A stretch of 64,000 bases of DNA from NCBI GenBank assembly GCA_016187335.1, contig JACPJW010000001.1:64001-128000 (forward strand), read 5' to 3'. The DNA comes from Candidatus Aenigmatarchaeota archaeon. Its GTDB lineage: Archaea; Aenigmatarchaeota; Aenigmatarchaeia; GW2011-AR5. The translations under genes were made by a program, and so were the position numbers. Under the pieces are notes generated by a model. It searched no databases and was not told the DNA's origin. It was given only the letters and a program-made list of their open reading frames with translations. This document shows positions 10,698 through 11,082 of this stretch, one piece after another (the first letter of the stretch is position 1; every line of letters begins with the position of its first letter).

Positions 10698-11082
10698 GAG
10701 GCTAGGCCGGGTAGCTAGCGGTTGCCTGTAGAGACCCTTTTCTTTTGGAAAGAAAAGCGTCTACGGAAAAGAAACACATTATGATATGATAGGCGGAAGC
10801 CGTAGTTTTCGTAGACGTTTTTGAGCATGCTCAAAAAGGTCTTGGGCAAAACCGTCAGTCCGCTTCAGACGGGGCCGAAGCCCAAAGGCGGTGCAGTCGC
10901 TTCAAAAAGCCCGTTGTTCAAGCAACGAAGCCCAGCCCGCTGGGATTTCTTCTGTAGCAAACCGGGTCAGGCGGGGAACCGAGCAGCCCTAAGTTATAGT
11001 CGGAATGCTCAGCGGTATCTGGGTGGAGCAAGAACTCCGGACAAACTTTTTGCAGCTTCTGCATCCACTGCGGGCGCGCCTC
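10698..11082 (+). ncRNA. ffs: Archaeal signal recognition particle (7S SRP) RNA precursor with one BHB intron
   Basis: Helix 8 GGTCAGGCGG-GGAA-CCGAGCAGCC; Alu 5' end GGCTAGGCCGGG...CCTGT|AACCG; Alu loop-loop AGCGG/CCGCT; GGGGCCGAAGCCC; termini pair GAGGC/GCCTC. Confidence 0.9.
10730..10849 (+). other. 120-nt bulge-helix-bulge intron in the SRP RNA Alu domain
   Basis: Central helix GCCT/GGGC, bulges GT^A and AA^A, inner helix GAGACC/GGTCTT. Splicing restores CCUGUAACCG. Confidence 0.82.

Follow-up and report, generated by a model that had tools for sequence, protein, structure and literature searches.

A putative bulge-helix-bulge intron in the single SRP RNA gene of an aenigmatarchaeal genome, with counterparts in related genomes

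The stretch of DNA analyzed here (the window) comprises 64,000 nt, positions 64,001 to 128,000 of contig JACPJW010000001.1 in assembly GCA_016187335.1, from a member of Candidatus Aenigmatarchaeota. The source genome (G000 in the survey described below) spans 1.01 Mb in two contigs and is estimated to be ~91% complete. An archaeal signal recognition particle (SRP) RNA gene lies on the forward strand at window positions 10695-11085, where the Rfam Archaea_SRP model (RF01857) scores 97.9 bits against a cut-off of 96.5; the alignment is colinear and runs end to end across model positions 1-317 (Table 1). Helix 8 is intact (GGUCAGGCGG-GGAA-CCGAGCAGCC, 10965-10988) and aligns to the RF01857 consensus, with both the GNAR tetraloop and the SRP54-binding loops retained. 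An initial annotation, made from the letters of the sequence alone, had described an SRP RNA with an intact helix 8 and an Alu domain broken by 120 nt at 10730-10849, and both parts of this description are borne out by the Rfam alignment and by the sequence itself. The same Rfam search, run across both contigs of the ~91%-complete genome, returned no second SRP RNA gene, in keeping with the expectation that this is the only copy. TTTAA(T/A)A boxes resembling the putative promoter element TTTAAGAAT occur at an equal distance upstream of the SRP RNA genes of two relatives (G050 and G059), and the trailer hairpin that follows the 3′ end of the gene may be a putative terminator or processing site.

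Table 1. Features of the SRP RNA locus, in window coordinates
Feature	Position	Strand	Basis or remark
TATA-like box TTTAAGAAT	10668-10676	+	~25 nt upstream of the SRP RNA 5′ end; putative promoter, read from sequence
SRP RNA exon 1 (5′ strand of helix 5/2; helix 3; UGU of the UGUNR turn)	10695-10729	+	RF01857 alignment; nhmmer HMM 4-37 = gene positions 4-37
Helix 3, GGGUAGC / GUUGCCU, loop UAGCG	10709-10715 / 10721-10727	+	In exon 1
5′ half of BHB: exon central strand GCCU and 3-nt bulge G-U|A	10724-10730	+	Predicted cut after U10729
BHB intron, 120 nt, inserted after the third base of the Alu-domain UGUNR turn	10730-10849	+	Rfam insertion, fold, homology borders, best deletion
43-nt hairpin-plus-tail module, intron positions 3-45	10732-10774	+	blastn; repeated in genome, both orientations
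3′ half of BHB: intron central strand GGGC and A-A|A	10844-10850	+	Predicted cut after A10849
SRP RNA exon 2 (AA ending the UGUNR turn; helices 4, 5, and 8)	10850-11085	+	RF01857 alignment; nhmmer HMM 36-269 = gene positions 156-388
Helix 4, CCGUC / GACGG, loop with CCGCU	10852-10856 / 10868-10872	+	In exon 2
Helix 8 GGAA loop	10975-10978	+
Trailer hairpin CAAACTTCTTTAGAAAAGAAGTTTG (perfect), then ATCAAG	11086-11116	+	Directly after the SRP RNA 3′ end

Directly after the sequence CCUGUA, the gene contains 142 nt where RF01857 expects 23. Homology to uninterrupted genes places the borders of the insertion at gene positions 36-155, with a slide of +1. Three hairpins (CUUUUCUUUU/AAAGAAAAG, CGUCUACGGAAAA/UUUUCGUAGACG, and UUUUUGAGC/GCUCAAAAA) lie within the insert, as does a run of five T residues (10818-10822), which might in principle act as an archaeal transcription terminator. 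Querying Rfam with positions 10715-10865 gave only chance-level matches (E of 0.7 or more), with no C/D box and no known RNA among them. An assignment to group I or group II introns was rejected; no ribozyme family reached its gathering score in the window, and 120 nt is too short for either type.

The ends of the insert instead form a bulge-helix-bulge (BHB) motif with the flanking exons. The central helix pairs GCCU (10724-10727) with GGGC (10844-10847) at all four positions; it is flanked by 3-nt bulges (G10728, U10729, and A10730 on one side and A10848, A10849, and A10850 on the other) in the register known from tRNA introns, each bulge lying 3′ of its central-helix strand, and is followed by an inner, closing helix of 6 bp between GAGACC (10731-10736) and GGUCUU (10838-10843). 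The outer helix can be drawn as the single pair U10723-A10851 or as 5 bp between GCGGU (10718-10722) and ACCGU (10851-10855) with U10723 unpaired. Minimum free energy folding of 10695-10875 recovers a structure that includes the BHB junction (z = -3.1), and none of 200 shuffled sequences folds equally well; on its 3′ side, this fold has a 5-bp central helix and a 2-nt bulge. Though the central helix, the 5′ bulge, the inner helix, and both options for the outer helix stand as first annotated, the 3′ bulge is not canonical. The canonical form (hBHBh′) has two bulges of exactly 3 nt, bordered by outer and inner helices of 2 bp or more; the 5′ bulge and inner helix have this form, but on the relaxed 3′ side U10723 lies opposite AAA, giving either a 1 × 3 internal loop or a 2-nt bulge. 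The same relaxed form is found in three relatives (G014, G015, and G053), which makes it a conserved variant and not decay. Shuffling the insert of the window gene produced a strict BHB (as defined below) at the homology-defined borders in 1.1% of cases. An alternative register, with CCUG/UGGG as the central helix and UAG and CAA as bulges, was rejected because its product is 2 nt too long.

As it stands in the DNA, the Alu domain is not contiguous, the UGU and the AA of its conserved turn being separated by 120 nt. Cutting in silico after the second base of each bulge yields CCUGU|AACCGUC, the same sequence seen in the 26 intronless relatives from the same order, whose uninterrupted genes of ~270 nt read CCUGUAACCGUC or close variants at the turn. 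After this removal the domain becomes contiguous, with a UGUAA turn, helix 4 (CCGUC/GACGG), and complementary AGCGG and CCGCU loops. The product initially predicted, UGU|AAC with the restored turn and loop-loop pairing, thus matches the relatives that have no intron. Scored with an nhmmer profile built from those 26 genes, the product joined at 35|156 gives a single full-length match of 209.2 bits, while the unspliced gene splits into two matches of 169.1 and 20.5 bits. Among 13 deletions of 120 nt, shifted from -20 to +20, removal of 10730-10849 scores best; it ties only with the +1 deletion, because a repeated A makes the two products identical.

Comparable insertions occur elsewhere in the order. 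SRP RNA matches were recovered in 58 of 70 genomes, and 17 of these 58 genes are interrupted by inserts ranging from 35 to ~230 nt. Intronless alleles, to which the initial annotation had looked for comparison, do exist in related MAGs, alongside 16 interrupted ones in addition to that of the window. Fifteen of the 17 interruptions fall at the UGUNR turn (G000, G006, G014, G015, G018, G028, G034, G044, G048, G050, G051, G053, G056, G057, and G059). The other two lie in the S domain, which binds SRP54: G012 (L031) carries an 83-nt intron in the 5′ strand beside helix 8, with a CCUG/UGGG central helix and an inner helix of 8 bp, and G063 (L038) carries one of 61 nt at the tip of helix 8, with CGGG/CCUG and an inner helix of 9 bp, whose removal in silico restores a GGGA loop. 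Retention of inserts at these two positions in a working RNA is hard to imagine. The longest insert, that of G050 (L046, about 790-975), includes GAAAAACAGTGT repeated in tandem as well as a stretch of N, and represents the 52-nt intron of G044 expanded to ~230 nt.

Borders in these relatives were set independently of any fold, by aligning each gene pairwise with its closest intronless counterpart, and a strict BHB was defined as four of four central pairs, 3-nt bulges in the tRNA register, and an inner helix of at least 3 bp. Such a motif falls exactly at the homology-defined borders in 11 of the 13 genes tested, as compared with 0-1.3% of trials with shuffled introns. Compensatory changes are evident across the central helix, whose exon and intron strands read GCCU/GGGC in the window gene and GCCU/AGGC, ACCU/AGGU, CCUG/CAGG, GCUG/CAGC, or UAUG/CAUA in others; the genomes surveyed are related and therefore not independent, yet they include at least seven clearly different intron sequences. 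For G056 and G057 the cut specified by the BHB lies 3 nt further 3′ than the alignment border, and a helix 4 of 5 bp (CCGGC/GCCGG) is restored by the BHB cut alone. Weaker cases include G048, with three of four central pairs, and G028, in which the central helix and bulges are present with almost no inner helix; no clear BHB register was found for G034 or G051, both of which are interrupted at the UGUNR turn.

Intron-bearing and intronless genes coexist within single genera (g5, g9, g12, g17, and g19). Introns also diverge faster than their hosts: the exons of G015 and G053 are identical at 271 of 272 positions, while their introns are ~84% alike over 61 nt. In the intron-bearing gene of G006, the loops of helix 3 (exon 1) and helix 4 (exon 2) read AGCGC and GCGCU, as compared with AGCGG and CCGCU elsewhere. 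This compensatory change indicates that the Alu fold, which needs both exons adjacent, is still under selection in genes that carry the intron.

The relatives reached through their splicing endonuclease gene are groundwater MAGs labeled 'Candidatus Aenigmatarchaeota', and the public runs that contain the locus are likewise groundwater metagenomes; no RNA run was among the matches to a 1-kb stretch of the locus or to the gene itself. One endonuclease gene of the Aenigmatarchaeota type (L124) was found on a contig labeled as a Planctomycetota MAG, and this contig is probably mis-binned. Interrupted SRP RNA genes in the order score 63-125 bits with RF01857, as compared with 110-177 bits for intact ones, and 12 of the 70 genomes have no match to the model. 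Because public contigs break at the intron repeat described next, some of these seemingly missing genes may be interrupted, and located at contig ends or below threshold.

Part of the insert is a repeat that is also found in tRNA genes. The 43-nt hairpin-plus-tail module is identical at 43 of 43 positions to part of an intron in the T-loop of tRNA-Tyr (C2:717639-717681 of the genome). That tRNA-Tyr(GTA) gene (C2:717528-717715, outside the window) contains two introns, one in the T-loop and one of 52 nt in the anticodon loop. The T-loop intron has a canonical BHB, with a 4-bp UUCG/CGAA central helix, the 5-bp T stem as outer helix, and an inner helix of 13 bp; its removal in silico restores a TTCGAAT T-loop, and ARAGORN then calls tRNA-Tyr(GTA). 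The tRNA-Tyr gene was worked through as a single case, as a loose genome-wide scan combining the module, the BHB, and ARAGORN proved too noisy. Other copies of the module are located either in introns, of the D-loop or the anticodon loop, or free in intergenic DNA, where they often follow a TAG stop directly. Many of the copies in the genome abut such a codon, as though the element ended in TAG(A)CCC.

Free copies within the window lie at 14224-14273 (reverse strand), ~5792-5816, ~11683-11740, and ~12449-12471 (reverse strand). The first of these makes up the entire 47-nt spacer that separates a 169-aa ORF, ending in a TAG stop at 14273-14271, from the start of the following ORF, which has the same orientation. 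A split-gene reading, in which a terminator- and promoter-like module would give two transcripts to be joined in trans, was rejected: the 3′ pairing arm of the tRNA-Tyr intron is too near the supposed TATA-like box for transcription, and the free copy fills its spacer and ends at the next start codon. Between genera, the module of G048 and G059 is identical at 64 of 66 positions while their exons are 79% identical, which suggests either mobility of the module or separate selection on it.

The genome encodes the enzymes that excision of such an intron would call for. There is one splicing endonuclease, EndA, of 202 aa (C2, reverse strand, ~410505-411113) with N-terminal and catalytic domains (PF02778 and PF01974), and an RtcB RNA ligase (528 bits). 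SRP54 is encoded and intact; SRP19 (PF01922) had no match in the genome, though the same search missed one of four archaeal control genomes, and the result may reflect a problem of sensitivity. Only 14 tRNAs were recovered by the Rfam tRNA model from this 91%-complete genome, seven of them 104-161 nt long, and most of its tRNA genes must carry an interruption, in many cases more than one. With half of the 14 matches exceeding 100 nt, EndA already has many non-standard introns to process. Single-unit EndAs are classically held to require canonical motifs, and a broad specificity is here assumed, on the basis of the literature, for the enzyme of this organism. DPANN single-unit EndAs with an extra C-terminal loop have been found to accompany heavily disrupted tRNA gene sets (Kaneta et al., 2018; PMC5829648). 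The heavy tRNA intron load of the present genome would fit this pattern, the loop being a feature of the EndAs in that study.

Taken together, these data make it likely (we estimate a probability of about 0.85) that the SRP RNA is made as a 391-nt precursor containing a 120-nt BHB intron, cut by EndA and joined by RtcB, and that the intron belongs to a family with fast turnover. Transcription would start ~25 nt downstream of the TATA-like box. In the precursor, the GCCU of the 3′ strand of helix 3 would be held by the GGGC at the 3′ end of the intron, and pairing of the intron ends (GAGACC/GGUCUU) would present the two bulges to EndA, which would cut after U10729 and after A10849. RtcB would then ligate the exons and probably circularize the intron. 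Helix 3, the UGUAA turn, helix 4, and the AGCGG/CCGCU loop-loop interaction could form only after splicing. The intron itself would be one member of a family built on the small hairpin-plus-tail module, which is also located in tRNA introns of the genome and between its genes. As the only SRP RNA gene found is interrupted by an intron of the tRNA type, the particle very probably needs the tRNA-splicing enzymes. Dependence on the tRNA-splicing machinery, as initially proposed, is thus supported by the sequence-level tests and by the presence of EndA and RtcB genes, while excision itself is something we infer from sequence.

Two other fates of the transcript appear improbable, to a similar degree. 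EndA might cut while the exons stay unjoined, leaving an SRP RNA of two pieces (35 nt and 236 nt) kept in contact through helices 2, 3, and 5, in the manner of fragmented rRNAs. The cutting signal is indeed present, and the Rfam structure shows extensive pairing of the exon-1 fragment with exon 2. However, RtcB is encoded and must ligate the exons around introns of the same family in tRNAs, including the T-loop intron, and a nick within the UGUNR U-turn would abolish the covalent turn that is the purpose of the motif.

Alternatively, the insertion might be retained, either because the Alu domain has expanded in this lineage or because it is dispensable and tolerates the disturbance. Archaea have no SRP9/14, and the role of their Alu domain is less well defined; some bacteria have no Alu domain at all. 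The RNA might thus tolerate disruption of this domain, and the case for obligatory splicing at the UGUNR turn is weaker for it; the insert is also strongly structured. The S-domain introns of G012 and G063 escape this objection, being similar inserts in the very part of the RNA that binds SRP54. Retention also sits poorly with the wide variation of the inserts in length (35 to ~230 nt) and sequence, with their alternating presence and absence within genera, and with the divergence of introns between exons that are 99.6% identical. BHB motifs at the borders are far commoner than chance would give, the same module resides in tRNA introns, which cannot be retained, and the loop-loop complementarity across the insert is both kept and covarying.

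Less probable still is a pseudogene, in which a mobile repeat would have inactivated the locus while a working SRP RNA was encoded elsewhere or was absent. The repeat in the intron is indeed dispersed in the genome, and an estimated completeness of ~91% leaves room for a second copy. Against this stand the single SRP RNA match in two contigs totaling 1.01 Mb, the intact SRP54, exons that are fully conserved and reach 209 bits when joined, and 16 other genomes with the same arrangement.

An assembly artefact, in which the 43-nt repeat made a chimeric join and placed foreign sequence in the gene, is very improbable: public contigs from the source samples do break at 10732-10774, but one contig of the likely source run matches 10745-11400 without difference and so includes exon 2 sequence together with the greater part of the intron. 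In 14 other species, assembled independently, the same turn is interrupted and the borders form a corresponding BHB, and the 3′ end of the insert pairs specifically with exon 1. No contig joining 10729 to 10850 was found among those of the source samples when contigs of four groundwater runs were compared at the locus. One contig from an unrelated run of 2024 joins 10730 to 10842 with unknown letters between; its probable origin is a relative whose intron differs.

Tentatively, and with somewhat less than even odds in its favor, a broader model may be proposed: the hairpin-plus-tail module would be a mobile element able to seed BHB introns, or to overwrite them, in any structured RNA of these archaea, with the UGUNR turn as a recurrent landing site. 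About a quarter of the order would in that case depend on splicing for protein targeting, and the simple SRP RNA introns would represent, in living organisms, an intermediate proposed by Plagens et al. (2015), discussed below. An ordinary internal intron is found at one of three sites in 17 of 58 related genomes, and its processing would widen the range of substrates of EndA and RtcB in DPANN archaea. The spread of introns into genes other than those for tRNA is here tied to a small mobile repeat that can be traced across genomes, offering a tractable system for studying this process. Weak or missing covariance-model calls for SRP RNA and tRNA in such MAGs are explained as well, by the low scores of interrupted genes and by assembly breaks at the repeat.

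BHB introns are textbook features of tRNA genes; outside these they are known from rRNA and, very rarely, from mRNA. Watanabe (in 2002) and Yoshinari (in 2006) reportedly described them in the cbf5 pre-mRNA and the rRNA of Crenarchaeota. These cases resemble the present one as EndA-type introns outside tRNA; they differ in their host RNAs, none of which is SRP RNA. The initial annotation knew of no intron in SRP RNA, and a full-text search of open-access papers likewise found no internal one; the present case is a known mechanism in a new host RNA, unpublished within the open-access literature searched.

Similar in form are those BHB introns of archaeal tRNA genes that are non-canonical or transposed (Fujishima et al., 2010; Sugahara et al., 2008; both as cited in PMC4731332). 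These share with the SRP RNA introns the geometry of the motif, the register of the cuts, the presence of related intron sequences at differing positions in different genes, and a fast turnover. The likeness extends to an EndA lineage reported with heavy gene disruption (PMC5829648) and to the 43 nt that are identical to the tRNA-Tyr intron. The SRP RNA introns differ from them in their host, in their length (35 to ~230 nt), and in having a module that is also free between genes.

Only one system, the nearest known to the present case, had previously tied maturation of the SRP RNA to tRNA-splicing enzymes: the permuted SRP RNA gene of Thermoproteus tenax and T. uzoniensis, which is matured through a BHB, the splicing endonuclease, and a proposed RtcB step (Plagens et al., 2015, eLife; PMC4731332). 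Circular 7S RNA segments of unknown meaning have also been noted in Sulfolobus and Halobacterium (PMC3326292). The Thermoproteus and aenigmatarchaeal genes have in common the BHB, the splicing endonuclease, the proposed RtcB, and a host rich in disrupted tRNA genes. However, in Thermoproteus the halves of the gene are swapped, the BHB is formed from leader and trailer, and the mature RNA is circular, whereas the window gene, from DPANN and not Crenarchaeota, has an internal intron and a predicted linear product. Its colinear alignment to RF01857 (model 1-317) rules out a permuted gene of the Thermoproteus type. Plagens et al. proposed that the permuted gene had an ancestor 'with simple BHB introns' (PMC4731332). 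As read from its sequence, the window gene matches the arrangement suggested for that ancestor, and would thereby supply the simple-intron stage proposed for the origin of the permuted SRP RNA gene.
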